A stretch of DNA of 64,000 nt, taken from an uncultured Dehalococcoidales bacterium. GTDB taxonomy: Bacteria; Chloroflexota; Dehalococcoidia; E44-bin15. The translations under genes and the position numbers were made by a program. Below, in pieces: positions 22,235 to 54,306 of the stretch. The stretch's first letter is position 1; each line of letters begins with the position of its first letter. Under the pieces are notes generated by a model, which had not been told where the DNA came from, made no database searches, and saw only the letters and a list, made by a program, of their open reading frames with translations. Location: positions 4,010 to 68,009 of the forward strand of contig CAYUWM010000002.1 of assembly GCA_964448395.1 (NCBI GenBank). The letters run 5' to 3'.

Positions 22235-22801
22235 ATGAAACTGATCGTCGGGCTGGGCAACCCGGGGAAGGCCTATGCCGGCAACCGCCATAACGTGGGG
22301 TTCCGCTGCATCGACCGCCTCGCCGCAGAGCACCGCATCCCGGTCAGGGAGCGCAGGCTGAGGCTGAAGCCGATAAAGGCGGTGTTCGGCCGGGGCGAGG
22401 TCGCCGTCACGCCGGTGGTGCTGGCCAAGCCGCTAACGTTCATGAACCTCAGCGGCACAGCGGTGGCGCAGCTGGTGCGCCGCCTCGGCGTATCGCCCGA
22501 TGACGTTATCGTGATTCACGATGACATGGACCTGCCATTGGGCAAGCTCCGCATCCGCCGCGGCGGCTCCGCCGGGGGACACAAGGGCGTAACGTCGGTC
22601 ATCGACTCGCTGGGCAGCGACGGGTTCATCCGCATCCGCATCGGCATCGGCCGACCCGACGGCGACGAGATTGCCCACGTGCTGGGCGACTTCACTGCGG
22701 AGGAGAAAAGCATGGTTACTGAAACCGTCGAGCGGGCCGCCGGGGCCGTAAGCTGCATCCTCGGCGACGGCATCGAGGCGGCGATGAACCGTTACAACTA
22801 G
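22235..22801 (+). CDS. pth: Peptidyl-tRNA hydrolase
   Basis: N-terminus is MKLIVGLGNPGKAYAGNRHNVGF. Confidence 0.9.
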   Translation: MKLIVGLGNPGKAYAGNRHNVGFRCIDRLAAEHRIPVRERRLRLKPIKAVFGRGEVAVTPVVLAKPLTFMNLSGTAVAQLVRRLGVSPDDVIVIHDDMDLPLGKLRIRRGGSAGGHKGVTSVIDSLGSDGFIRIRIGIGRPDGDEIAHVLGDFTAEEKSMVTETVERAAGAVSCILGDGIEAAMNRYN

Positions 22802-22861
22802 CGCCCGCTCTCGCCGCGGTTGCCCCGAAGCGCTCCGAAGGTGTATAATTATCTTCCCTTG

Positions 22862-24655
<1,794 letters not shown>

Positions 24656-24656
<1 letters not shown>

Positions 24657-25810
24657 TGAAAGTCTTTGAAAAAAGATGGGTAGAAGAAATAAGGCAACGT
24701 TATGGCTCCATATCAAAATATACACGCCCTTTTATAGCTTTTCTAGCACTCGAACCAAGAGCTGCAGGAGAAAGAAAAAGGATTGAAGAATGGTTTCAAA
24801 CAATTCCAGACGAGATGAAACCTGACTTTCTGAGCAGGCTGAGAAGTAAAGATGAGAAACAACATTTCAGCGCCTATTATGAATTGCTGTTACGTAGCTT
24901 TTTTCAAAGTAGAGGATTAGATGTTACACTAAATCCCAGTTTAGAAGAGGGAAAACCTGATTTGTTGATAAATGGAATTGAATTAACAAGTCCCTTAATA
25001 GTTGAAGTTGCCACGATTTTTGATGATCCTGATTTCGAAAAGGAATCTCGAAGGCTCAATTTAATCTTAGAGAAGTTAGAGGACATAAAGCACTATTTCT
25101 TCATAATAATATCCGTTACTTCAAGCATCCCGGAACACGTAGATTACAGAAAGCTCGTAAAATTTATAAGAAAATGGCTTGATAGTTATGATCCTCGTAC
25201 AACAACGTCAGAGAAAGATACTACTTATCGAGAAGAGGGATTAGATTTGAAGTTAACCTTGATCCCAAAGCGAACCTTGAGAAGAACATCAATTATTGGA
25301 GGATATATGCCTCCCATCAGACACGTCTCTACAGTTCAACTAAGACGTGCAATAGAGAAGAAGATTCAAAAATACAAGAGTATCAAGAAAGATAAATTAC
25401 CATTCATTGTTGCCACTTGCTTGCACAAAGATACCTTTGTGGGAGAAGAAGAAGCCATTCAGGTCCTGTTTGGACAAGAGATTTATACTATCGATTTGAG
25501 AAGTGGAAAAACTGCAGCAACTACTAGGGATTTAAGTGGTTTGCTTACACATAAGCCAGGATTGGGTGATTTGGCTCAAAACACAAGGTTAAGTGCATTG
25601 CTTCTAGTTACCAGCAAATGGGTAATACAAGAAAAGAACAAAAGTGAACACAGAGCGCATCACTTACATTTAATACGTAATCCAAATGCGGCTGTGCCAT
25701 TGTGTTTTGACCCTTTCGGTGGCTATCCTCAACTAGTCAAAGTTTCAGAAACCTCTGACAAATATGAGTTGAAATGGCTTGATAAAGAGACGGGGAAAAC
25801 CTTCGTCTGA
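24656..25810 (+). CDS. AT-rich hypothetical protein (about 384 aa), likely horizontally acquired
   Basis: The ATG overlaps the eno stop (TGATG). GC drops to roughly 35-40%, against 60% or more in the flanks. No recognisable domain, apart from a weak PD...EVA nuclease-like motif. Confidence 0.6.
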
Positions 25811-25830
25811 TTGTCTAGCAAAGCATAGAT

Positions 25831-26862
25831 ATGAAAAACATCGGCATAACCACCACGGTCCCCACGGAAGTCCTGCTGGCCGCGGGATACCGGCCCGTTG
25901 ACCTGAACAATGTGTTTATCTCCGACCCCGAACCCCGGCACTTCGTGGACATAGCCGAGCAGGACGGCTTCCCGGTGAACTGCTGCGCCTGGATCAAGGG
26001 CATGTACGGCGTGGCCATAGAACAGTGCATCGATACGGTCATGTGCGTCACCACCGGCGACTGCTCCAACACCGAGATGCTGATGGAGGTGCTGCGCCTC
26101 AAGGGGGTCAACGCCGTACCCTTCGCCTACCCGCAGAAGCCCGACGCCACCCAGATGCGGTACTGCCTGGAGTCGCTGGCCGAGGCGCTGGGCACCACGC
26201 TGGAAGCGGCGGAGCGCGAGCGAGAGAGGCTGGAACGGGCGCGGGGGATGGCGCGGGAGCTGGATGAACTGACGTGGCAGGACGGCGTGGTCAGCGGCTT
26301 TGAGAACCACTACTGGCTGGTGTCCGCCTCCGACTTCAACGGCGACGTCGTCAGCTACGAGAAAGGGCTGGAGAAACTGCTGGAGGAGTGCCGCAGCAGG
26401 AAGCCGTACCCCAACGATACCCTGCGCCTGGCCTTCATCGGCGTGCCCCCTATCTTCGGCAGTGACCTCTACGACTTCGTAGAGCGCAACGGGGCGCGCA
26501 TCGTCTTCAACGAGACGCAGCGCCAGTTCGCCATGCCGCATCGATGCGAGGACCTGGCCCAGCAGTATTCGAAGTACACCTATCCGTACTCTTTATCCGC
26601 TAAACTGGATGATATCTTGCCCCAACTGCAACAGCGGCGGGCGGACGGCGTGATACACTACGTTCAGACCTTCTGCCACCGCGGCATCGGCAACATCGTC
26701 TTCCGCCACCGCATCGAGACGCCCATATTGACGCTGGAGGGCAACAACGACTACACTTTGTCCCAGCAGGCCAAAACCAGGATAGAGACTTTTCTGGAGG
26801 TGCTGGACGGCCGGCGTCCGAGTGTCCAAGCACTTCCACATGACCCGGTACCGAGGCGATAA
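25831..26862 (+). CDS. 2-hydroxyacyl-CoA dehydratase D-component family protein (HgdB/BcrB-like)
   Basis: Cys-rich with family-like spacing (CCAW, TTGDC, FCHRG). No partner subunit or activase lies nearby. Confidence 0.45.
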   Translation: MKNIGITTTVPTEVLLAAGYRPVDLNNVFISDPEPRHFVDIAEQDGFPVNCCAWIKGMYGVAIEQCIDTVMCVTTGDCSNTEMLMEVLRLKGVNAVPFAYPQKPDATQMRYCLESLAEALGTTLEAAERERERLERARGMARELDELTWQDGVVSGFENHYWLVSASDFNGDVVSYEKGLEKLLEECRSRKPYPNDTLRLAFIGVPPIFGSDLYDFVERNGARIVFNETQRQFAMPHRCEDLAQQYSKYTYPYSLSAKLDDILPQLQQRRADGVIHYVQTFCHRGIGNIVFRHRIETPILTLEGNNDYTLSQQAKTRIETFLEVLDGRRPSVQALPHDPVPRR

Positions 26863-26877
26863 GAAAGGAGTTTTTAT

Positions 26878-27891
26878 ATGGCAACAAAGGTCGGCATAAA
26901 CGGGTTCGGCAGGATCGGCAGGCAGATACTCAAGGCGGTCATCGAGAACTACAAAGGCAAGCTGGAGGTGGTGGCCCTCAACGACCTCACCGACACCAAG
27001 ACCAACGCCCACCTCTTCCGCTACGACTCCAACTACGGCGGGTATCAGGGTAAGGTGGAGGCTACCGAGGACTCCATCGTCATCGACGGCAATAAGGTGA
27101 AGGTGATCTCCGAGCGCGATCCGGGCAAGATACCGTGGAGCGACTACGGCATAGAGCTGGTGGTGGAGTCCACCGGCCTGTTCACCAAGGCCGAGAAGGC
27201 GTCGGCCCACATGCAGGGCGGTGCCAAGAAGGTGATCATCACCGCCCCGGCCAAGGGGGAGGACCTGACCGTGGTGCTGGGGGTCAACGAGAAAACCTAC
27301 GACCCCAAGAAGCACCACATCATATCCAACGCCTCCTGCACCACCAACTGCATCGCACCGGTGGCCAAGGTGCTGAACGACAACTTCGGCATTGAGAAAG
27401 GGCTTATGTCCACCATCCACGCCTACACCAACGACCAGCGCATCCTCGACCAGGTGCACAGCGACCTGCGTCGGGCGCGCTCGGCGGCCATGAGCATCAT
27501 CCCCACCACCACCGGCGCCGCCAAGGCGGTCACCGTGGTCATCCCCGAACTGGCGGGCAAGATCCACGGCATGGCCTACCGCGTCCCCACCCCCACCGTC
27601 TCGGTGGTGGACTTCGTCGCCGACCTGGGCAAAGGGGCCACTGCGGACGATGTTAACGCCGCCCTAAAGAAGGCGTCCAAAGGGCAGCTCAAGGGCATCC
27701 TCGGCTACTGCGAAGAGGAGCTGGTGAGCATAGACTTCAAGGGCAACCCGCTGAGTTCGATCGTGGACGCGCCCTCGACCATGGTCATCGGCGGGAATAT
27801 GGTGAAGGTGCTCGCGTGGTACGACAACGAGTGGGCCTACGCCTGCCGCGTCGCCGACCTGCTCAGCTTCATCGCCGGGAAAGGGCTGTGA
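26878..27891 (+). CDS. gap: Glyceraldehyde-3-phosphate dehydrogenase
   Basis: N-terminus is INGFGRIGR. Active site is SNASCTTNC. Confidence 0.95.
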
Positions 27892-27912
27892 CCATTACGA
27901 TCGAAACCGGAT

Positions 27913-27941
27913 TTGGCAAAGGAGTCGATTTGCGCTATAAT
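27913..27941 (+). promoter_or_regulatory. Sigma-70-like promoter, TTGGCA-17 nt-TATAAT
   Basis: Read directly, about 50 nt upstream of the 27992 GTG start. Confidence 0.45.
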
Positions 27942-27991
27942 GCACAACGTATGACCCTCAACATGTTTTACAGTATTAGAGGAGGAACCCC

Positions 27992-29554
27992 GTGCGCGTC
28001 CTCCTCATGAGCACACCCTACCCGCTGGAAGAGAACCCCATCCCTCCCCTGTCCCTGGCCTACCTCGCCGCCGTGCTGCGGGAGGAGGGCTTCGAGGTGG
28101 AGATACTGGATCATCTGGTGTCCATGTATTCGCCATCGAAGCTGAGGCGCAAGCTCAGTGAATTCCAACCGCAGATGGTGGGCGCTACCTGCGTGACGTT
28201 GAACTACCCCATCGCCTCACGCATCATGAAGGTTTGCAAGGAGTTCGACCCCCAAATAGTAACCATGCTCGGCGGACCCCACGCCACCTTCGCCATCGAG
28301 GAGACCCTGCTCAAGGCCCACTGGGTCGACCTGCTGGTGATCGGCGAAGGCGAGCGTACGGTGACAGAGCTGGCGAGGACAATCGATAGCGGCGGCGACT
28401 TTCGCCGGGTGCCCGGCATCGCCTTCCGCGACGGCGACCGGGCGGTGAGGACCGAGCCCCGCCCCCTGATCGAAAACCTGGATGAGCTCCCCTTGCCCGC
28501 GCGCGAACTGTTGCCGCTGTCCAAATACCACGCCCTGAACACCCCCTGCACGGTTATCACCAGCAGGGGTTGTCCCTTCAAGTGCATCTTCTGCTCCGGG
28601 CCACGCGTCTTCGGCAGGCGTGTCCGCTTCCGCGACCCCAAGCTGGTGGTGGATGAGATCGAGCAGATCAACAGGGATTTTGGTTACAGAAGGATAAACA
28701 TCGTCGATGATACCTTCACCCTCAATCACCGCCACGCGCGGGCGGTGTGCGAAGGCTTAATCGAGCGCAATCTGGATATCGAGTGGAACGTCTTCGCCCG
28801 CGCCGATACGGTGGACGCAGAGCTGCTGAAGCTGATGAGAAAGGCCGGCTGCTCCTGGCTGCTCTACGGCGCGGAGTCGGGAAACCCGGACATCCTCAAG
28901 ACCATCAAGAAGGGAACCACCCCCGATATCATAAGAGAGGGTACCAGGCTTGCCGTCGAATCGGGCATAAACGTCTTCAACTCATTCATCTTCGGCCTGC
29001 CCGGCGAGACCCCTGAGACCGCCCGCCAGTCCGTTGATTTCGCACGAGAGCTCGACGAAAAATACGGGGCCAAATACGGTTTCCATATACTGTCCCCCCT
29101 GCCGGGAACCGAGCTGTATGACCATCCGGAAGAGTACGGGCTCCGCATCCTCTCCCGCGACTGGTCGAAGTACGATGCCAACCGGCCCATAACCGAGACC
29201 GCCGAGATGAGCCCGGAAAAGGTGCTGGAGATGGCCGCCGAATACGATCAGGCGATATCCTACGCCCTGGACGATATAGAGCGCCGGGCGGCAGAGGGCG
29301 ACCCCGAATGCAAAGAATTGATGCGGAACAAGCTGAGCACGGAGTTCGTGTGGCAGCTCCTGAAAGAAGATATCGTGGAGCGGCTGGGACGCATGAAGAA
29401 TGGCACCGACCCGGTAAGGCAGCTTGCACAGAAGGTATCCCGCAAGATGGACATCCCGCTGCAGTTTGCCGAGCAGGAGACGGGAAGACTGGTACAGGCG
29501 GGCCTGCTCCAGCATCGGCCGGCAGAAGGAGGCCTCATTTGGCAGTGGAGCTAA
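27992..29554 (+). CDS. B12-binding-domain radical SAM protein
   Basis: N-terminal cobalamin-binding domain, then the radical-SAM CxxxCxxC motif (SRGCPFKCIFCSG). GTG start. Confidence 0.8.
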   Translation: MRVLLMSTPYPLEENPIPPLSLAYLAAVLREEGFEVEILDHLVSMYSPSKLRRKLSEFQPQMVGATCVTLNYPIASRIMKVCKEFDPQIVTMLGGPHATFAIEETLLKAHWVDLLVIGEGERTVTELARTIDSGGDFRRVPGIAFRDGDRAVRTEPRPLIENLDELPLPARELLPLSKYHALNTPCTVITSRGCPFKCIFCSGPRVFGRRVRFRDPKLVVDEIEQINRDFGYRRINIVDDTFTLNHRHARAVCEGLIERNLDIEWNVFARADTVDAELLKLMRKAGCSWLLYGAESGNPDILKTIKKGTTPDIIREGTRLAVESGINVFNSFIFGLPGETPETARQSVDFARELDEKYGAKYGFHILSPLPGTELYDHPEEYGLRILSRDWSKYDANRPITETAEMSPEKVLEMAAEYDQAISYALDDIERRAAEGDPECKELMRNKLSTEFVWQLLKEDIVERLGRMKNGTDPVRQLAQKVSRKMDIPLQFAEQETGRLVQAGLLQHRPAEGGLIWQWS

Positions 29555-36615: not shown

Positions 36616-37104
36616 TTACGCTACCTCCCTCTTGGCCATATCGAGGTACTTCCCCACCTTAGCGCGGGCCAGTGATATCCCCACCTTTTCACTTTGAAGA
36701 TACTTCAAAGCCTCGGTGTAGCAGTACTTGACGCACTGGGGCTCGTCGAGGCCGGCGCACAGGTCGCATTTCATGGCTACACCGCTCTCTGTATCTACTA
36801 CTATTGCGCCCACCGGGCAGGCTATCTCGCACAACCTGCAGCCGATACATTTCTGTTCGTCGACGATCTTTACGCCGGCGTCGTTTTCGCTTATAGCACC
36901 CGTGGGGCATACCGCCTTGCAGAAGGCCTCCTCGCACTGCAGGCAGGATACGCGGACGCTGTAACGGATCTGGTTCTCCACCGTAATCACCACCTTCCCC
37001 CTTGCCTTCACCGGGTTGAACTCCCCCTCTTTAACGAAGCTGCAAATAGCTTCACAGACCCTGCAACCGGTACACTTCGTCGGGTCCCACACGATCCTTT
37101 TCAT
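36616..37104 (-). CDS. Multi-cluster 4Fe-4S ferredoxin (AOR-associated electron-transfer subunit)
   Basis: Four CxxCxxCxxxCP-type motifs in 162 aa. Immediately upstream of AOR on the same strand. Confidence 0.8.
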   Translation of the reverse strand: MKRIVWDPTKCTGCRVCEAICSFVKEGEFNPVKARGKVVITVENQIRYSVRVSCLQCEEAFCKAVCPTGAISENDAGVKIVDEQKCIGCRLCEIACPVGAIVVDTESGVAMKCDLCAGLDEPQCVKYCYTEALKYLQSEKVGISLARAKVGKYLDMAKREVA

Positions 37105-37266
37105 GATTCTAATCTCCCTTTGAAAATAATCTTCCTCCTTGAAGTGAATTTATAATGCACCCATAAGCCTCACTAGTCAATTTCCTCTATCCTACTTAAA
37201 CCTCACTTTTCCTCTCAATTCTAGTAGAACAACGAGGGTTCCTACCTACACGGCCGCCCATGTTTG

Positions 37267-37295
37267 TTGACATTTTACTCGTGTTGAGCTATATA
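37267..37295 (+). promoter_or_regulatory. Sigma-70-like promoter, TTGACA-17 nt-TATATA
   Basis: Lies in an AT-rich divergent intergenic region, about 55 nt upstream of the 37352 ATG. Confidence 0.45.
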
Positions 37296-37351
37296 GAATG
37301 ATATAACCTTACAAAAGTTATCTAATCCTACACACTGTCGATAGAAAACTG

Positions 37352-37894
37352 ATGGACGAAAAGAAAGCTGGCATGCTAACGGTCAAGGAGGTGGCTGATC
37401 TGCTCCACGTACATATCAACACCGTGAGGAGGTGGTGCGATCAGGGTCTACTGAAAACGCAGCGCGTTGGGCCACGGGGGGATAGAAGGTTCCGGCCTGA
37501 GGATATCGATAGATTCCTCGCTTCGGGTGGGAAGGTTCGCCATCAGGATACGGTTCTCATCATTGAAGATAATCCTGAAATCCTAGAATTCTTGAAAGAT
37601 ATAGCCGAGAAACAGGGTTATGCGGTCAGTGCCTGTGCCACCAGTGACGAGGCCCTGCACGAAATCGAAAAGAAACATTTCGGCCTCATCCTCTTTGATT
37701 TAGCCCTACCCAAGCAAAGCGGTCTGGAAGTACTTAGGGCTGCAAGAACCAGGGAACAGAAAGTGGCGGTTGCTGTCATCGCCGGGTATCTCGGTGACTT
37801 TGCCGATCTGGGCCCTCTGTTCTTTGTACGGGATCCCTTCGACACCGACAGCATCGTCGAGGTTCTCAATGAGACACTGGGTACAGGGCAATAA
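37352..37894 (+). CDS. Regulator with an N-terminal MerR/excisionase-type HTH and a C-terminal receiver-like domain
   Basis: HTH region is LTVKEVADLLHVHINTVRRW. REC-like region is VLIIEDNPEILEFL...ILFDLALP. Confidence 0.6.
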   Translation: MDEKKAGMLTVKEVADLLHVHINTVRRWCDQGLLKTQRVGPRGDRRFRPEDIDRFLASGGKVRHQDTVLIIEDNPEILEFLKDIAEKQGYAVSACATSDEALHEIEKKHFGLILFDLALPKQSGLEVLRAARTREQKVAVAVIAGYLGDFADLGPLFFVRDPFDTDSIVEVLNETLGTGQ

Positions 37895-37984
37895 TCCTTC
37901 GGCCTATTTGCCTTTATCGACTTGCCGTAGTATAATTCTGCCCGTTGCACTGATGTAGTATAATAAGGACTCAGGGGGTGAGTA

Positions 37985-38266
37985 ATGACCCTTGCGGAAC
38001 TACGCGATCTATTCATTATCATATTTGCAGTAGCAGGCATCGGGGCTGCCGTCTTCGTCTCCCTGATGACCTTCGCGCTCTACCGCAAGCTGCGCGACAT
38101 CCTCGACTCGGGAAGGGCTATCACCGGCGATATCCACAACATAACATCTTCGGTATCCCAGGACCTGGTGAAGCCGCTGGCCAGCATCTCCGGCATAGTG
38201 CAGGGGGTTGCCAAGGTATTGGAATTCCTGTTCGAGAGGAAAAAGGAGGATAAAGATGGCAGATAA
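37985..38266 (+). CDS. Small membrane protein (hypothetical)
   Basis: One TM helix near the N-terminus. Confidence 0.4.
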   Translation: MTLAELRDLFIIIFAVAGIGAAVFVSLMTFALYRKLRDILDSGRAITGDIHNITSSVSQDLVKPLASISGIVQGVAKVLEFLFERKKEDKDGR

Positions 38267-47324: not shown

Positions 47325-48733
47325 TAAGCCTAGCAAACAGGAGCCTGGTGACCATAGACGATTTCTCCAACGCGGAGATCGAGGCCGTGTTCTCGCTGGC
47401 CGACGAGATGTCGGACGCCGTAACCCGGCAGTCGGACCTGTGCCGGGGCAAGATACTGGCCAGTTTGTTCTTCGAGCCCAGCACCAGGACGCGGATGTCC
47501 TTCGAAGCCGCCATGCACCGGCTGGGGGGGGACGTGATATCGGTGATGGAGATGGGCTCCACCTCGCTGTCCAAGGGGGAGAGCATCGCCGATATGGCAC
47601 GGATCGTGGGCAGCTACGCCGACATCATCGTCATCAGGCACCCGTGGGAAGGGGCAGCGAAGGTGGTGGCCGACTATGCCGGCGTCCCGGTGATCAATGC
47701 CGGCGACGGAGGGCACGAGCACCCCACTCAGACACTGTGCGACCTGTACACCCTCAAGAAGGAGAGGAACACCCTGGAAGGGCTCAAAATAGCGCTGTGG
47801 GGCGACCTCAAATACGGGCGGACTACACATTCTCTGGCCTACGCGCTGGCCCGTTTCGGGGCCACCATCCACTTCCGCCCCGGCGCCGGCCTCGGCCTGC
47901 CGCAGCACGTTATCCGGAAGCTTACCAAGGAGTACGGCGGCATACTGGAGAGCTACGGCGAATCCGGGGGGACTAAAAGCGACAAGACCTTCCCCCTCGA
48001 CGCTATCTATGTGACGCCGAGCAACCCCCACCAGCTCACCAATATCCCCGGCATCAACATCCAGATCGAGATGGAGAAGGGCGTCGATGCCCTGTACGTG
48101 ACCCGCCTCCAGCGGGAGAGGCTGGATGCGGATGCCGGAAAGGACCAGGTATACCCGGTGGTGGACAAGAAGCTGCTCAAGAAGGAGCAGTTCAAGGAGA
48201 CCATCGTGATGCACCCGCTGCCCCGCGTGGACGAGCTGGCCTACGAGATAGACGCTGACCCGCGCAGCATGTACTTCAAGCAGGCGGCTCACGGCGTGCC
48301 GATCAGGATGGCGCTGATGGCGCTGCTGCTGGGGGCAAAAGAGGCCGATATACGGGAGACGGTGCACAACTACGCCCGCAAGAAGGGTTACCCGGTTTAC
48401 AAATGTAACAGCGGGGTGAAATGCGAGAATAAGAAGTGCGTCACCGCCCAGCCCACCGAGACCAGGTATATCAAGCCCGAGTTCATCATAGTGGAGACCA
48501 AGCCGCTGACCCTGCGCTGCCTCTACTGCGAGCACGAGGCGGTCCCGCCGTACTTCGCCAGCCTGAAGTGGCACGAGGGGAAACTGGAGAACAAGCAGTA
48601 CTACCCGTCGCACAGCTACATGGCGGAGCGGATAAGGCCGGAGAACCTGATCATCTTCGGCTCGGAGCGTGACGCCGAGTCCCAGGGTTTCTACCCCAGC
48701 CTCCATCCCCACATATCGGAGAAGAAGGTATAG
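47321..48733 (+). CDS. pyrB: Aspartate carbamoyltransferase catalytic chain fused to a PyrI-like zinc domain
   Basis: STRTR and HPLP motifs give an ATCase core of about 330 aa. This is followed by KCENKKCVTAQPTE...RCLYCEHE (PyrI Zn-domain pattern) and a further tail of about 60 aa. Confidence 0.8.
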   Translation: MISLANRSLVTIDDFSNAEIEAVFSLADEMSDAVTRQSDLCRGKILASLFFEPSTRTRMSFEAAMHRLGGDVISVMEMGSTSLSKGESIADMARIVGSYADIIVIRHPWEGAAKVVADYAGVPVINAGDGGHEHPTQTLCDLYTLKKERNTLEGLKIALWGDLKYGRTTHSLAYALARFGATIHFRPGAGLGLPQHVIRKLTKEYGGILESYGESGGTKSDKTFPLDAIYVTPSNPHQLTNIPGINIQIEMEKGVDALYVTRLQRERLDADAGKDQVYPVVDKKLLKKEQFKETIVMHPLPRVDELAYEIDADPRSMYFKQAAHGVPIRMALMALLLGAKEADIRETVHNYARKKGYPVYKCNSGVKCENKKCVTAQPTETRYIKPEFIIVETKPLTLRCLYCEHEAVPPYFASLKWHEGKLENKQYYPSHSYMAERIRPENLIIFGSERDAESQGFYPSLHPHISEKKV

Positions 48734-48737
48734 CGAT

Positions 48738-50063
48738 ATGCCTAAAGCGCTGCTGATCGCCGGCGGACGGGTCGTAGACCCTGACCAGGACCTGGATATG
48801 GTGTGCGATGTTCTCGTCGCCGATGGCAAGATCGCGTGGGTGGGACCGCGCAAGGGCATGCCCTCGCTGCCGTGCGACGTGCTACACGCCGGGGGGATGG
48901 TGGTCTGCCCCGGGTTCATCGATCTGCACTGCCACCTACGCGAGCCGGGCTTCGAGGACAAGGAGACGATAGCCAGCGGCACCCGTGCCGCGGCCGCCGG
49001 CGGCTTCACCACCGTCTGCGCCATGGCCAACCTCGACCCGCCCACCGATACGGCAGCGGCGGCCGATTTTATCAGGAGGAAGGCGGCAATGGAGGGCGCG
49101 ATTCGCGTGCTGCCGGTGGGGTGTATCACCGCGGGGCGCAAGGGGGAGCTGCTGGTGAACGTAGAGGAGCTGGCGGAGGCCGGCGTGGTGGCCCTCAGCG
49201 ACGATGGCGACGCGGTGAAAGATGCCCGGCTGATGCGCTCCGCTCTGGAGTCCAGCCACCTGTTCGACCTGTTCATCATCGAGCACTGCGAGGATTCATT
49301 GCTGAGCGACGGCGGGGTGATGAACAAGGGCGAGATTGCGGAACGCCTGGGGCTGAAAGGCATACCCGCCGATGCCGAGGAGAGCATGGTGTCCCGCGAC
49401 ATATCGCTGTCGCAGCTGACCGGCGGACACCTGCACATCACCCACGTCAGCACCGACGGCTCGGTGACGCAACTGAGGCACGCCCACGAGATGGGTTACG
49501 CCGTTACCGCCGACGTCACCCCCCACCACCTGACGCTTACCGAGGAGCGGGTTGTCGGCAAAGACGGCAGGGCCGATACCAGAGCCAAGGTGAACCCCCC
49601 GCTGCGGAGCGAGCAGGACGTGGCGGCGCTGGTGGCAGGGCTGCGGGACGGGTATATACAGGCCATCGCCACCGACCACGCCCCCCACACCGCGGCCGAC
49701 AAGGACTGCGATTTCGACAGGGCCGCCTTCGGCATCAGCGGGCTGGAGACCGCGCTGGGCAGCGTCATGTCGCTGGTGCACAGCGGCGACCTGGAGTTGT
49801 CAACGCTGATAGCCAGGCTCACCTCAGGTCCGGCGCGCGTGCTGTGCCGCGACGACATCGGGACGCTGGAGCCGGGCGCCGAGGGAGATTTATGCATATT
49901 CGACCCGAACGCGGAGTGGGTGGTGGACCCCGAGAAGTTCGAATCCAGGGGTAAAAATACCCCGCTAGCCGGAGAGAAGCTGAAGGGCAAAGTGATGGCC
50001 ACCGTTTACGGCGGCAACATCGTGTACAGGGACGACTCGATAAAGCTGGAGACTGAGGGCTAG
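48738..50063 (+). CDS. pyrC: Dihydroorotase
   Basis: Metal-binding DLHCHLREPG motif. About 440 aa. The ATG at 48738 is the likely start. Confidence 0.85.
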   Translation: MPKALLIAGGRVVDPDQDLDMVCDVLVADGKIAWVGPRKGMPSLPCDVLHAGGMVVCPGFIDLHCHLREPGFEDKETIASGTRAAAAGGFTTVCAMANLDPPTDTAAAADFIRRKAAMEGAIRVLPVGCITAGRKGELLVNVEELAEAGVVALSDDGDAVKDARLMRSALESSHLFDLFIIEHCEDSLLSDGGVMNKGEIAERLGLKGIPADAEESMVSRDISLSQLTGGHLHITHVSTDGSVTQLRHAHEMGYAVTADVTPHHLTLTEERVVGKDGRADTRAKVNPPLRSEQDVAALVAGLRDGYIQAIATDHAPHTAADKDCDFDRAAFGISGLETALGSVMSLVHSGDLELSTLIARLTSGPARVLCRDDIGTLEPGAEGDLCIFDPNAEWVVDPEKFESRGKNTPLAGEKLKGKVMATVYGGNIVYRDDSIKLETEG

Positions 50064-50210: not shown

Positions 50211-50978
50211 ATGGATATAGAAAAAACTTTAAAGCTAATTGAAGGGAAAATACAAGAAATACCTGCTCTAAGATGGCCCTGCTTTGATTACAAAAAGAAT
50301 GACGAAGAAGTACATTTGTGGATTAACGACACTCTCTATATAGTTGAGGACGGATTCGGGAGGGATTCTCCAGAATACAAGCGTGTAGCCAATTCATCAA
50401 GGCGTACTAGAGTCATTGACACTTCCAAACAACGTGAAATTAATATGCAGTGCTTAGATTCATGCGAATCTGCACTACAATCAATACTGCGCAATTATGA
50501 AGGAGAAGATTTTACCTCGGTCACTTCTACACCGACTGAGGGGACATTAACTCCTAAGGTATTCATTGCACACGGTAAGGATTCACTAGCACTAACAAAG
50601 CTATGTCGCTTTTTAACACAAATAAGTATTGATCCCCTAGTCGTAGAAGACAAGCCTAGCGAAGGTAGAGCTGTTGACGATAAAGTTGATTTTTATTTAA
50701 ACCAATCTGATTGTGCAATTATATTAGCAACAGGAGATGACCAAATAGACGGCAAGATTCACCCCAGACAAAATGTAATTCACGAAATAGGCTCAGCTCA
50801 AAGAATTTTCCCCCGTAAAATTATCTATCTATTGGAAGGTGGTACTGAATTCCCTTCAAACATTAGTCCTAAAGTCTGGCAGAGTTTCAATCAAGAATGT
50901 ATGGAAGAAGCATTCATTACAATTGCTAGAGAATTAATAGCATTCGGTCTTTTAAAGTCGGTGAAACCTGAACAATGA
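50211..50978 (+). CDS. AT-rich protein with a C-terminal TIR-like domain (COG4271-type) and an N-terminal domain of about 115 aa with no recognisable match
   Basis: The C-terminus (KVFIAHGKD...RQNVIHEIGSAQRIFPRKIIYLLEGGTEFPSNIS) matches the COG4271 consensus (KVFIVHGHD...RARQNVIFELGYF...GVELPSD). GC is roughly 37%, against more than 60% in the flanks. Confidence 0.65.
   Translation: MDIEKTLKLIEGKIQEIPALRWPCFDYKKNDEEVHLWINDTLYIVEDGFGRDSPEYKRVANSSRRTRVIDTSKQREINMQCLDSCESALQSILRNYEGEDFTSVTSTPTEGTLTPKVFIAHGKDSLALTKLCRFLTQISIDPLVVEDKPSEGRAVDDKVDFYLNQSDCAIILATGDDQIDGKIHPRQNVIHEIGSAQRIFPRKIIYLLEGGTEFPSNISPKVWQSFNQECMEEAFITIARELIAFGLLKSVKPEQ

Positions 50979-51078: not shown

Positions 51079-54302
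<3,224 letters not shown>

Positions 54303-54306
<4 letters not shown>

Follow-up and report, generated by a model that had tools for sequence, protein, structure and literature searches.

The locus considered here raises the question of how a single gene of foreign composition came to lie at the stop codon of enolase in an uncultured Dehalococcoidales bacterium, and what this gene, hereafter gene X, encodes. It is found in the window, by which we mean the whole 64-kb stretch of DNA that was analysed, between the enolase gene (eno) and an HGD-D family gene (Table 1). The initial annotation had described an AT-rich single ORF of about 384 aa with an abrupt change of base composition at the eno stop (TGATG), and both the coordinates and the description are right. 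Translation of gene X on the + strand starts at GTG 24653 or ATG 24656 and ends at 25810, giving 384-385 aa, and the eno stop TGA (24654-24656) has one A in common with the ATG (gTGATGa). The GC content falls from 0.63-0.69 to 0.35-0.41 precisely at the eno stop and is back up within about 20 nt of the stop of gene X.

Gene X has a GC content of 0.377 and a GC3 of 0.33 (0.326), whereas the GC3 of the five flanking genes is 0.80-0.91. In the sliding GC analysis, which had been suggested with the initial annotation, gene X was an outlier of -4.9 sd among the 1155-nt segments of the window (mean 0.588, sd 0.043). The GC of gene X was also below that of the host in all 28 distinct loci (0.406 ± 0.023 vs 0.375-0.616). 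Family members of a distant clade have GC3 values of 0.93-0.98, which indicates that the protein does not force AT-richness, and an intrinsic cause at the amino-acid level was ruled out on this ground. The low GC (0.38 vs 0.62 of the host) may rather be the mark of a shared, AT-richer accessory gene pool than of an old resident. The window copy stops two codons earlier than the family consensus, and the spacer behind it (25811-25830) contains a remnant (TGATTGTCTAG) of the ancestral ...FDC (stop) end of gene X.

The order LDc-eno-[slot]-HGD-D-gap was conserved across 27 reference loci, and the LDc-eno-HGD-D-gap block looks like one operon. The best promoter-like site is located at 22820-22849, at the start of the LDc gene, and the next one at 27913. 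No terminator-like sites were found between 22700 and 28100, which is consistent with the earlier claim that gene X is co-transcribed with eno, and no Rfam family matched in the region of 22-29 kb. Gene X would be expressed by transcription that continues from the operon promoter, with its translation coupled to that of eno. A TATAAT hexamer in the final codons of eno was considered as a promoter of gene X and rejected, since it codes for a conserved Tyr-Asn of enolase and genomes with nothing between eno and HGD-D have it too. Promoter-like sites within gene X were rejected as the chance yield of AT-rich sequence.

Table 1. Position of gene X, its conserved residues and the surrounding genes in the window
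Feature	Position	Strand	Evidence
LDcluster4/lysine-decarboxylase-like gene (LDc), first of the block LDc-eno-[slot]-HGD-D-gap	22820..23386	+	ORF; Pfam labels of orthologues; synteny
Enolase (eno), left core flank of the slot	23373..24656	+	ORF; Enolase_N/Enolase_C on orthologues
Last ~300 nt of eno, GC-rich; left part of the high-identity tract with L001	24360..24656	+	Sliding identity
TGATG joint, overlap of eno stop and gene X ATG	24654..24658	+	Sequence; junction comparison of 18 loci
Gene X, AT-rich ORF (384 aa), slot cargo; divergent PD-T7-5-like, putative PD-(D/E)xK-type nuclease	24656..25810	+	
Putative nuclease core, residues 67-154	24854..25117	+	Secondary structure of model; conservation
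E76 codon	24881-24883	+	Conserved core residue
D102 codon	24959-24961	+	Conserved core residue
E117 codon	25004-25006	+	Conserved core residue
K236 codon, near-invariant lysine in helix 226-237	25361..25363	+	At least 90% conserved in alignments A2, A4 and A5
N342-P343 of the C-terminal 'HNPxAxxPL' motif	25679..25684	+	Conservation; PD-T7-5/PD-T7-1 model matches in relatives
20-nt spacer between gene X and HGD-D, travels with gene X	25811..25830	+	Junction alignment
HGD-D family gene (2-hydroxyglutaryl-CoA dehydratase D-component-like), right core flank	25831..26862	+	ORF; PF06050 on orthologues
gap (glyceraldehyde-3-phosphate dehydrogenase), last gene of the terminator-free block	26878..27891	+	ORF; Gp_dh_N/Gp_dh_C on orthologues

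A recurrent cargo slot at the eno/HGD-D joint

The state of the joint was surveyed in 27 reference loci anchored on HGD-D and in about 20 metagenomic loci. This synteny check from eno to HGD-D, also suggested earlier, confirmed that the flanks are conserved in the 27 reference loci and in about 20 metagenomic ones, but the reading of a single, one-off insertion did not survive it. The eno/HGD-D joint is a recurrent variable cargo slot of Dehalococcoidales, and gene X is one of several alternative cargos. In six reference genomes the slot is empty and the operon intact, and the stop codon of eno overlaps the start codon of HGD-D (AAATGA) at the same position at which it overlaps gene X in the window; the empty joint of the L016 type reads ...TATAACCTGGGAAAATGAAAACCATCGGCATAACC... 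The slot holds HicB/HicA in L015 and L021, an MBL-fold hydrolase in L024, L028 and L030, and a trypsin-like peptidase together with an enoyl-CoA hydratase in L019. The remaining loci carry other genes, with at least eight different states in all, and the slot measures 0-3.4 kb and mostly contains one gene.

The gene X family uses this slot in three divergent clades, keeping its own composition in each, and some of its copies there follow an MBL or methylase gene and are not directly at the joint. The first ~25 nt of HGD-D are near-invariant across lineages. In L015, 23 nt of the HGD-D 5′ end are duplicated around the HicAB genes, a hint that there is also a site-directed route.

Transfer hotspots that are free of mobile genetic elements (MGE), and 'core defence hotspots', are known to lie between conserved core genes (Oliveira et al. 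2017, PMC5635113; Johnson et al. 2023, PMC10250203), and in the published model it is double recombination in the core genes on either side that diversifies the MGE-free hotspots (PMC5635113). The eno/HGD-D slot agrees with them in its fixed core flanks, in its variable content, which includes toxin-antitoxin and defence-type genes, in having no integrase or transposase, and in the evidence of homologous recombination in the flanking core gene eno that is given below. It differs from them in its tiny size, in lying within an operon, where the stop and start codons of two translationally coupled genes overlap, and not between transcription units, and in the duplication that accompanies the HicAB cargo of L015. 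The slot is a very small, integrase-free hotspot, a one-gene slot at a stop/start overlap in a glycolytic operon, which alternates between empty, HicAB, MBL hydrolase or gene X and in which a recombination tract has been caught in the act.

Exchange of gene X together with the end of eno

The eno gene of the window is 93-94% identical to that of contig L001, which carries gene X, and to that of L015. When the window was compared with L001, the dS of gene X was 0.047 and that of the five flanking genes 0.236-0.467, a difference of 5-10-fold. The dN/dS of gene X in this comparison was 0.48, a value that derives from few substitutions. A tract of 0.95-0.99 identity spans from ~24360 to ~25860 and ends just past the 20-nt spacer. 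Inside eno, sliding identity was 0.96-0.99 at the 3′ end versus 0.86-0.94 upstream. The 297 nt of the 3′ end differ at 7 positions and the remaining 984 nt at 96 (Fisher p = 8e-6), and the dS is 0.073 versus 0.329. No such depression was observed when the same segment was compared with L015 (dS 0.170 vs 0.198). The rise of identity inside eno places the probable left crossover of a homologous-recombination event near 24360. Gene X and the last ~300 nt of eno were exchanged between the lineages of the window and L001 long after these had split.

In all four core genes tested, the window was nearer to the HicAB-bearing L015, its closest relative by such genes, than to L001, and according to the enolase tree gene X is patchy within the clade of the window. 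In two Dehalococcoidales clades it is present throughout and diverges in step with eno (r = 0.84), as would also be expected of an ordinary accessory gene or even of a useful housekeeping gene. Within clades, gene X is 63-82% identical and eno 87-92%.

Neither direct nor inverted repeats were found to flank gene X, and in the 64-kb window we found no tRNA gene and, by tblastn with Xer-like and rve queries taken from related loci, no integrase or transposase. In this respect the initial annotation, which had noted a foreign single gene without such enzymes, was borne out. Gene X brings neither a recombinase or transposase of its own nor terminal repeats, by which an integrative mobile element is recognised. 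Since there is no integrase or repeat, gene X was probably carried by homologous recombination in its flanks; the exchange would take place where eno ends and HGD-D begins, with recombination functions supplied by the host.

Fold and conserved residues of protein X

The product of gene X, protein X, had no family match in Pfam, NCBIfam or PADLOC, even at E <= 10, and hmmscan against PADLOC-DB v2.0.0 gave 0 families at E <= 10. Among the PHROGs, the only match was a weak one to phrog_8571 (E = 5e-4), a phrog of unknown function. Ten distant members of the family gave nothing but sub-threshold noise against Pfam and NCBIfam, including TnsA-like N at E = 0.046. The earlier statement that the protein has no recognisable domain therefore holds for direct scans of the libraries, but not for searches through intermediates, which lead to a PD-T7-5-like family as described below.

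An AlphaFold2 model of protein X (pLDDT 86.4, pTM 0.82) has a helix at 67-85, strands at 89-92, 103-106 and 114-120, a helix at 125-142 and a strand at 148-154, which is the alpha-beta-beta-beta-alpha-beta order of the PD-(D/E)xK core. Outside the core, the model consists of an N-terminal helical region and a beta-rich C-terminal half of ~200 residues. A model of the domain only was weaker (pLDDT 70.7) and lost the fourth strand. Foldseek with the full model found nothing in PDB and BFVD at E <= 0.001. The best fold matches of the domain model were Hjc, VRR-NUC and I-Ssp6803I, with Hjc or VRR-NUC at eight of the top ten places, and EcoRV and PspGI were also among the best; none was individually significant. 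Sequence profile searches of PDB gave Bax1 and SfsA as best matches, on the PD...E strands of the core, and none of these was significant either. For structure and sequence together, the best E values against solved nucleases were 0.05-0.4. Protein X resembles Hjc, VRR-NUC, Bax1 and SfsA in the order of the core, in which the first helix carries a conserved Glu, Pro-Asp lies at the second strand and the third strand carries Glu, but it is three times larger, its matches to them are non-significant, and the position of the (D/E)xK lysine is occupied by alanine (E117-V-A119).

The PD...EVA nuclease motif, which had been proposed tentatively, turned out to be real: P101-D102 and E117 do not vary among 36 relatives, and in 140 superfamily members they are at least 90% conserved. 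E76, D102 and E117 are nearly invariant in sets of 68-140 superfamily members. The same level of conservation (at least 90% in 129-140 members) was found for E76, D102, E117 and K236. K236 aligns with a lysine of a Pseudomonas homologue and might be the substitute for the absent (D/E)xK lysine. No support was obtained for a catalytic role of the Rx6H motif; R61, R63 and H70 are invariant only in the close subfamily and not across the superfamily. All 31 family-invariant residues are present in the window copy, as follows from the construction of alignment A1, and the mean column identity of 57% over 36 sequences indicates clear long-term constraint on the family. The best reading of the model and of the conservation is that protein X carries a PD-(D/E)xK-type core with E76, D102 and E117 plus K236. 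Such a centre, perhaps including K236, would cleave nucleic acid, with phage DNA as the most likely substrate, and the beta-rich C-terminal half would serve recognition or regulation.

Relation to the PD-T7-5 defence family

PD-T7-5 was obtained by functional anti-phage selection from the E. coli pangenome; the system consists of one CDS, about 390 aa long (ORF of 1174 nt) and labelled 'Nuclease' (Vassallo et al. 2022, PMC9519451). The HHpred table of its authors gives a weak Hjc/PDDEXK/DUF790 signature, at residues 58-108 only (PMC9519451 supplement), and its mechanism is listed as 'N/A' (PMC10952713). Because this mechanism is unpublished, even firm homology to PD-T7-5 yields a phenotype and not a mechanism.

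We collected 129 relatives of protein X by phmmer, all at E <= 4e-14. The PADLOC model of PD-T7-5 (PDLC04110) was matched by 69 of them (best E = 1e-13) and that of PD-T7-1 (PDLC04073) by 33, and no other family was matched. Nine of ten graded relatives, which reach up to 45% identity to protein X, match PD-T7-5 collinearly, both at the core in the N-terminal half and at the HNP motif near the C-terminus, and in the C-terminal matches residues ~325-363 of the relatives correspond to positions 277-311 of the PD-T7-5 model. When the subfamily alignment A1 was compared with the 388-aa Pseudomonas homologue by hhalign, the probability was 98.7% (E = 4e-16, 313 columns). A search for homologues through this Pseudomonas branch gave no E. 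coli sequence among the best 120 entries, all of which are named 'hypothetical protein'. Gene X resembles PD-T7-5, and the more distant PD-T7-1, in that all are solitary genes of ~385-390 aa; with PD-T7-5 it further has in common a weak PD-(D/E)xK-like signature (Hjc, PDDEXK, DUF790/Bax1) at residues ~60-120 with no other domain, and the role of accessory cargo among defence or mobile genes. Unlike PD-T7-5, it is located inside a core metabolic operon and not in a prophage or island, and protein X itself does not reach the PD-T7-5 model at E <= 10. Protein X is thus best read as a deeply diverged member of the PD-T7-5 superfamily, through a link that is transitive and passes by intermediates and profiles.

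The family comprises 35 close clusters and 1590 representatives at 50% identity, and the members examined have neither a name nor a Pfam domain. The subfamily of protein X was found only on Dehalococcoidia-type contigs and mostly at the eno locus, while relatives at 38-46% identity occupy many unrelated sites that do not adjoin eno. Neighbours at these other loci include AbiTii, BrnT, HicAB, type IIG-like restriction-modification enzymes, a CBASS operon and Tn7-like cargo. Several family members lie among housekeeping genes without defence neighbours, and the composition of some homologues in such contexts is fully host-like. In ~20 distinct contexts no conserved partner gene was found and the immediate neighbours differed each time, so the family has no conserved adjacent partner such as defines a type II toxin-antitoxin system. 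No relatives were detected in viral contigs with the A1 profile, or in INPHARED phages by tblastn with one relative.

Gene X is, on the best reading of these comparisons, a previously unannotated, distant relative of PD-T7-5. The E. coli PD-T7-5 family would be extended by it to a large superfamily (1,590 clusters at 50% identity) that reaches into Chloroflexota. The Dehalococcoidia branch is wholly missed by the current Pfam, NCBIfam and PADLOC models, and for this reason the defence inventories of these mostly uncultured, environmentally important bacteria are probably undercounted. E76, D102, E117, K236 and N342-P343 are the residues to be targeted by mutagenesis in order to work out how PD-T7-5-type proteins act.

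Origin and function of gene X

We consider, with a probability of about 0.55, that gene X is a laterally acquired, stand-alone nuclease-type gene, a diverged member of the PD-T7-5 superfamily, that sits in the eno/HGD-D cargo slot. As for its function, gene X is best interpreted as hotspot cargo that would encode a defence nuclease, divergent but of the PD-T7-5 type. The best-known single-protein PD-(D/E)xK defence nuclease is Shedu (SduA, DUF4263), which has the logic proposed here for protein X, namely one protein of ~400 aa with a PD-(D/E)xK domain and variable sensing regions, encoded by a solitary gene. However, the DUF4263 and PADLOC Shedu models are unmatched by protein X and by its 129 relatives, and the nuclease core of protein X is N-terminal.

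Because hotspots collect accessory genes, a nuclease with a role other than defence, such as DNA repair or recombination, the exclusion of plasmids or mobile DNA, or a stand-alone toxin, would also be carried in the slot. The nuclease-like core is the sole functional clue in the sequence, the MBL hydrolase, enoyl-CoA hydratase and peptidase genes show that the slot takes up other functions, and this reading also agrees with the 'N/A' given for the PD-T7-5 mechanism and with the homologues in housekeeping contexts that have host-like composition. It is nevertheless doubtful, since the sole PADLOC families of the relatives are two functionally selected anti-phage systems, the relatives recurrently adjoin Abi, toxin-antitoxin, restriction-modification and CBASS genes, and the fast evolution relative to eno together with patchy turnover is typical of defence genes. 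Less probable still is a selfish, free-standing gene of the homing type, which would cut the empty eno/HGD-D joint and be copied in by recombinational repair. Free-standing homing endonuclease genes, such as the phage seg/mob genes and that of the PD-(D/E)xK enzyme I-Ssp6803I, resemble gene X in the precise insertion of a single ORF, patchiness, foreign composition and a low-divergence tract into the flank. Here, the joint that received the insertion is highly conserved, neither integrase nor repeats accompany the gene, occupied and empty sites are both present among relatives, and the tract of ~300 nt into eno resembles a co-conversion tract. The same few nucleotides were entered in three divergent clades with a near-constant GC (0.41 ± 0.02 in hosts of 0.38-0.62), and I-Ssp6803I is among the local fold matches of the PD-(D/E)xK core (2.1 Å, 49 columns, not significant). 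In a weaker form of this reading, selection would act on the AT-richness as such, for instance because it throttles the expression of a dangerous nuclease in a glycolytic operon. On the other hand, close relatives (38-46% identity) are at many unrelated sites and not at one target site, some slot copies are off the joint, behind an MBL or methylase gene, and unrelated cargos that cannot home (HicAB, MBL and others) use the same slot. The link of the superfamily to an experimentally selected defence gene and the long co-divergence of gene X with its host in two clades also argue against homing.

According to the initial annotation, related genomes with the gene at this locus and the same composition would make it an ancestral low-GC gene, and relatives with gene X at this place and at low GC do exist in number. 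A vertically inherited operon gene tied to enolase, for example as a degradosome-like RNase partner with selected AT-richness, would also fit the translational coupling to eno, the GC of 0.41 ± 0.02 whatever the host, and the correlated identities of gene X and eno (r = 0.84) in three congruent clades. For the lineage of the window, however, this was largely refuted: gene X is patchy in the clade, the flanks exceed it 5-10-fold in dS, and the core genes are closer to L015, which holds HicAB in the slot, so gene X is not ancestral here. The empty slot in six intact operons, the unrelated cargo in others and the relatives at 38-46% identity that are not beside eno speak against it as well, and a GC3 of 0.33 beside 0.90 would be unexpected after long residence, given that the distant clade is fully ameliorated. 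We therefore regard ancestral descent as very improbable. Just as remote is an artefact, in which the low-divergence tract or the presence of gene X stems from chimeric metagenome assembly or binning, or in which gene X is a decaying remnant. All comparison sequences are metagenome-assembled, many gene X-bearing contigs are short, and the window copy is two codons short of the consensus with a dN/dS of 0.48. But the junction of eno and gene X recurs in the independent assemblies of L001, L048 and the window, L048 is 100% identical over eno and 573 nt of gene X, the 384-aa ORF is intact with precise, in-frame junctions, and the long-term constraint on the family (57% mean column identity over 36 sequences) is not that of a remnant. 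Of these readings, we favour the laterally acquired PD-T7-5-like nuclease gene.

A second AT-rich island in the window

A GC content of 0.42 or less was found in only 5 of 629 segments of 1155 nt in the window, and these derive from gene X and from one other island at 50.2-51.0 kb. This second AT-rich island also consists of a single gene, which encodes a TIR-type candidate defence protein and is located between pyrimidine-biosynthesis genes. The two islands suggest a pattern in the source genome, in which solitary AT-rich defence genes have slipped in among core genes.

Gene X and its base composition

The initial annotation described gene X, the AT-rich ORF between the enolase gene (eno) and a 2-hydroxyglutaryl-CoA dehydratase D-component-like gene (HGD-D), as an insertion in which base composition changes abruptly at the eno stop. 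The ORF and the abruptness were both confirmed. One base is common to the eno stop codon and the X ATG (gTGATGa), and in a 300-nt sliding profile GC falls from 0.63-0.69 to 0.35-0.41 exactly at this joint, recovering about 20 nt past the X stop, just ahead of the HGD-D start. X has a GC of 0.377 and a GC3 of 0.326, compared with a GC3 of 0.80-0.905 in the five flanking genes, and is an outlier of -4.9 sd among all 1155-nt windows of the 64 kb (mean 0.588, sd 0.043).

In the Dehalococcoidia subfamily, sampled at 28 distinct loci, GC of X was 0.406 ± 0.023, with host flanks at 0.375-0.616; it was below host GC in 28/28 loci and correlated weakly with it (r = 0.31, not significant). The protein does not impose AT-richness, because distant homologues (L086 to L089; 21-22% identity, 68% GC lineage) have a host-like composition, with a GC3 of 0.93-0.98. 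The near-constant composition of the subfamily, despite a coarse phylogeny that follows the host, may reflect selection for AT-rich codons or frequent exchange of genes within an accessory pool that is richer in AT. The site of the distant homologues is conserved in two different species: an EcsC-family gene lies on one side, a NADase_transloc-domain gene on the other, and a Tol/ExbBD cluster is adjacent. The L090 homologue (GC 0.45, GC3 0.36, on a 0.65 GC contig) adjoins groES/groEL and is another AT-rich solitary copy amid housekeeping genes.

Coordinates of features in the window, in the X protein and at comparison loci (L-numbers)
Feature	Sequence	Position	Detail
Gene X	window	24656-25810 (+)	384 aa; in-frame GTG at 24653
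End of X and X/HGD-D spacer, the spacer with remnant of ancestral X end, TGATTGTCTAG	window	25800-25830
HGD-D start	window	25831
Best promoter-like sites (consensus scan)	window	22820 and 27913
Alpha-beta unit (model)	X protein	H67-85, E89-92, E103-106, E114-120, H125-142, E148-154
Second AT-rich island	window	50211-50978 (+)	255 aa; GC ~0.38-0.41
Dihydroorotase-like gene	window	48669-50063
carB	window	51079-54306
Milder GC dip	window	37000-38000	GC 0.48
HTH_17 (MerR/excisionase-type) + response-regulator receiver gene	window	37352-37894	180 aa
Direct repeat	L015	5356-5378 and 5847-5869	23 nt
N-run	L015	5902-6000
HicB remnant	L017	5601-5759
Phage_integrase/Phage_int_SAM_1 gene	L002; L004	7079-7993; 7150-8064	304 aa
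Type IIG-like gene beside X	L050; L078	140-3754; 1244-5347	1204 or 1367 aa
HicAB pair beside X	L067	1634-2067 (-)
Distant homologue	L086, L087, L089	8001-9137
Distant homologue	L088	1176-2312
Homologue beside groES/groEL	L090	5285-6235	316 aa
Family fragment	L092	4875-5291	138 aa
Pseudomonas aeruginosa homologue	L094	10001-11167	full-length

A variable slot between eno and HGD-D

A survey of 27 loci from species-representative genomes was anchored on the downstream HGD-D protein, and its close loci were all Dehalococcoidales or Dehalococcoidia MAGs. Synteny from eno through HGD-D held as far as gene order is concerned: an LDcluster4-like gene, eno, the slot, HGD-D and the glyceraldehyde-3-phosphate dehydrogenase gene (gap), after which a radical-SAM gene often comes. 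The content of the slot, however, varies, so that the view of a single-gene insertion after eno stands for X itself but not for its uniqueness. In five genomes (L016, L020, L025, L026, L027) the slot is empty, and the eno stop and the start of HGD-D overlap (...AAATGA...), which indicates translational coupling of the two genes; in L029 it is empty with a short spacer. Elsewhere it holds a HicB/HicA toxin-antitoxin pair (L015, L021), a trypsin-like peptidase with an enoyl-CoA hydratase (L019), an MBL-fold hydrolase (L024, L028, L030), two unannotated ORFs with a HicB remnant (L017), 260 bp without an ORF (L022), other genes of 1.6 kb (L032) and 3.4 kb (L031) or, in the window and many metagenomic contigs, X. 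Non-X cargos likewise have a GC under the host value. X lies exactly at the coupling joint and now holds the stop/start overlap with eno; eno-MBL-X-gap and methylase-X-gap arrangements also occur.

The HicB/HicA cassette of L015, the closest reference relative of the window, is flanked by a direct repeat (22/23 identical) of the HGD-D 5′ end, a sign that this cargo may have been inserted by a site-directed route; the N-run there, with duplicated sequence on either side, looks like a masking or scaffolding artefact. The L017 remnant is 85% identical to the L015 HicB.

As initially annotated, no transposase or integrase accompanies X: the Xer-like recombinase and the rve transposase of related loci have no homologue in the 64-kb window, which also lacks a second X copy and tRNA genes, and no direct or inverted repeats flank X. 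In one X-bearing clade (L002, L004) an integrase-domain gene, XerC/D-like by size and domains and probably a housekeeping Xer recombinase, is found two genes upstream of eno, with nothing corresponding to it in the window.

No terminator-like site was found in 22700-28100, and the best promoter-like sites lie near the two ends of this region, a pattern most simply read as X belonging to the eno operon transcript. X ends in F-V-stop in the window versus F-D-C-stop in relatives, and the 20-nt X/HGD-D spacer retains a remnant of the ancestral end. Because the window HGD-D has lost the overlap seen in empty-slot genomes and shows no obvious Shine-Dalgarno sequence, its translation may now depend on X.

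Exchange of X between lineages

Over 11 loci X identity tracked enolase identity (Pearson 0.84) in three congruent clades, within which X diverged faster than eno (63-82% versus 87-92% identity). The enolase tree shows X uniformly present in two clades and patchy in that of the window, where it occurs in the window, L048 and L001, HicAB occurs in L015 and sister lineages are empty. X seems resident at the coarse scale and, judged from sequence divergence, is clearly younger than its surroundings at the fine scale.

Between the window and L001, dS was 0.047 for X; the five flanking genes gave 0.467, 0.262, 0.315, 0.236 and 0.438. In a sliding comparison, identity was 95-99% between about 24360, a point inside eno where the DNA is still GC-rich, and about 25860; on either side of this tract it was 83-94%. 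Of the eno differences, seven fell in the last 297 nt and 96 in the remaining 984 nt (Fisher p = 8e-6), with dS of 0.073 and 0.329, respectively. Constraint does not account for this, since in comparison with L015 the segment shows no unusual conservation (dS 0.170 versus 0.198). In 4/4 core genes tested the window was nearer to HicAB-bearing L015 than to X-bearing L001. Together with the low-dS tract, this shows that X and the end of eno were transferred between the window and L001 lineages after their separation, with putative crossovers inside eno and at the HGD-D start. At the nucleotide level, eno over its last ~20 nt and HGD-D over its first ~25 nt hardly vary across lineages, and these stretches would give short homology even for distant relatives.

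Protein family and relationship to PD-T7-5

Direct Pfam, NCBIfam and PADLOC scans of X gave no match, in agreement with the earlier view that it has no recognisable domain, and none of the 35 clusters of its close family (38-95% identity) carries a name or Pfam domain. An exhaustive phmmer search retrieved 1,590 representatives at E ≤ 0.001, mostly of 350-390 aa, a few with N-terminal extensions. The AlphaFold2 model built on the family alignment was confident (pLDDT 86.4, pTM 0.82) and comprises an N-terminal helical region, an alpha-beta-beta-beta-alpha-beta unit and a beta-rich C-terminal half. E76 in the first helix, P101-D102 at the second strand and E117 in the third are family-invariant; together with K236, G273, G295 and P343 they are at least 90% conserved in 129-140 superfamily members, down to ~20% identity. 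The predicted layout is that of a PD-(D/E)xK nuclease, but with alanine at the lysine position (E117-V-A119). K236 is a candidate substitute for the absent lysine, and we only infer a catalytic mechanism.

The best PDB profile matches were Bax1 endonuclease (E = 0.05) and SfsA (E = 2.2), both on the PD...E strands. Compact superpositions of the full model were limited to EcoRV and PspGI; with the domain-only model (pLDDT 70.7), 8 of the 10 best matches were Hjc resolvases or VRR-NUC, and I-Ssp6803I and DdmD ranked lower. No solved-structure match was individually significant, but all point in the same direction. VRR-NUC, DUF4268 and 'PD-(D/E)XK' proteins had the highest probabilities in a viral library.

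PADLOC was run on 129 superfamily representatives, all phmmer matches of X at E ≤ 4e-14. PD-T7-5, a single-gene E. coli anti-phage protein, was matched by 69 of them (best E = 1e-13), PD-T7-1, another such protein, by 33, and no other family by any. In a graded series PD-T7-5 was the top or only family for 9/10 relatives, including those 45%, 39% and 38% identical to X. Its matches were always collinear, the nuclease core (residues ~40-150) pairing with model positions 25-124 and the HNP motif near the C terminus (~325-363) with 277-311. The X-subfamily profile aligned with a 388-aa Pseudomonas aeruginosa homologue, obtained by tblastn with a PD-T7-5-matching relative, over 313 columns (98.7% probability, E = 4e-16) with every conserved motif in register.

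PD-T7-5 was obtained from E. coli by functional anti-phage selection and labelled 'Nuclease'; it is a single CDS (RRM82777.1; ORF 1174 nt, about 390 aa), for which the HHpred table of its authors lists only weak matches to Hjc, FokI-C, BsuBI/PstI, Vsr, PDDEXK_5, RmuC and DUF790, confined to residues 58-108 (PMC9519451 supplement). A later survey placed PD-T7-5 and PD-T7-1 among PD-(D/E)xK nucleases, with mechanism 'N/A' (PMC10952713). X has the same weak nuclease signature in the same place. From this likeness, the PADLOC matches of relatives and the profile alignment, X is very probably a deeply diverged member of the PD-T7-5 superfamily; since it fails the PD-T7-5 family model itself, we rank it as a variant of that kind, not a member.

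Genomic contexts of X relatives

No partner gene of X was conserved across the loci compared. Outside the eno locus, neighbours of its relatives include AbiTii with a UPF0102/NERD-like gene and transposases, a BrnT toxin, AAA_25, HTH_17 and HTH_3 genes, and plain housekeeping genes. At two independent loci (L050, L078) X adjoins an Eco57I/MmeI-type restriction-modification protein (Eco57I/N6_Mtase/TaqI_C); the order methylase-X-gap identifies L050 as the eno/gap neighbourhood again, and L078 also has an RNase_H_2 + PDDEXK_1 protein. The HicAB pair of L067 is 61-65% identical to the L015 cargo and, with the L017 remnant, indicates that alternative slot cargos co-occur elsewhere too. The Pseudomonas aeruginosa homologue (L094-L097), which occurs on hundreds of contigs, belongs to a group of unannotated genes between TniQ, beside glmS, and core genes, with an Endonuclease_1 gene nearby; this group is the cargo region of a Tn7-like element. 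On Acinetobacter baumannii plasmid pBJAB0715 (L092), a family fragment, present on 11 Acinetobacter plasmids, follows directly after a CBASS operon (cyclase, AAA ATPase, DUF6602). Such company of defence and mobile genes is suggestive but does not amount to statistical proof.

Interpretation

We propose that X is a stand-alone PD-T7-5-like nuclease gene in lateral circulation, probably serving anti-phage defence, that it is the cargo of a one-gene hotspot without an integrase within the eno operon, and that related genomes swap it through homologous recombination at the flanks. For hotspot and lateral transfer we estimate a probability of about 0.9; a defence function is favoured by a small margin. 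An accessory nuclease with a non-defence role would share the predicted fold; the defence-gene neighbours of X relatives speak against it, and we regard it as unlikely. The exact placement at the coupling joint would suit a homing-type selfish endonuclease aimed at the eno/HGD-D joint; relatives also reside at other sites, and this reading is quite improbable. Coarse-scale congruence with enolase would fit an ancestral operon gene tied to it, and the patchy distribution and low dS would not, which leaves this reading hardly tenable. An assembly artefact or decaying gene is just as hard to credit beside an intact ORF and an eno-X junction that recurs in independent assemblies (L001, L048 and the window).

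Examples are already known both of hotspots between core genes and of single-protein PD-(D/E)xK defence nucleases. What is new is a large Chloroflexota branch of the PD-T7-5 superfamily, invisible to current models, the placement of such a gene in the stop/start overlap of a glycolytic operon, and a recombination tract revealing how X moves.

Other AT-rich sites

A second single-gene AT-rich island, between the dihydroorotase-like gene and carB, is the same phenomenon with a different gene. Pfam identifies a CAP12/Pycsar-type TIR domain in its protein (E = 1.2e-18), and PADLOC gives a full-length match of the protein to the candidate defence system PDC-S35 (E = 1e-27). The third, milder dip consists of an AT-rich intergenic stretch and the HTH gene.
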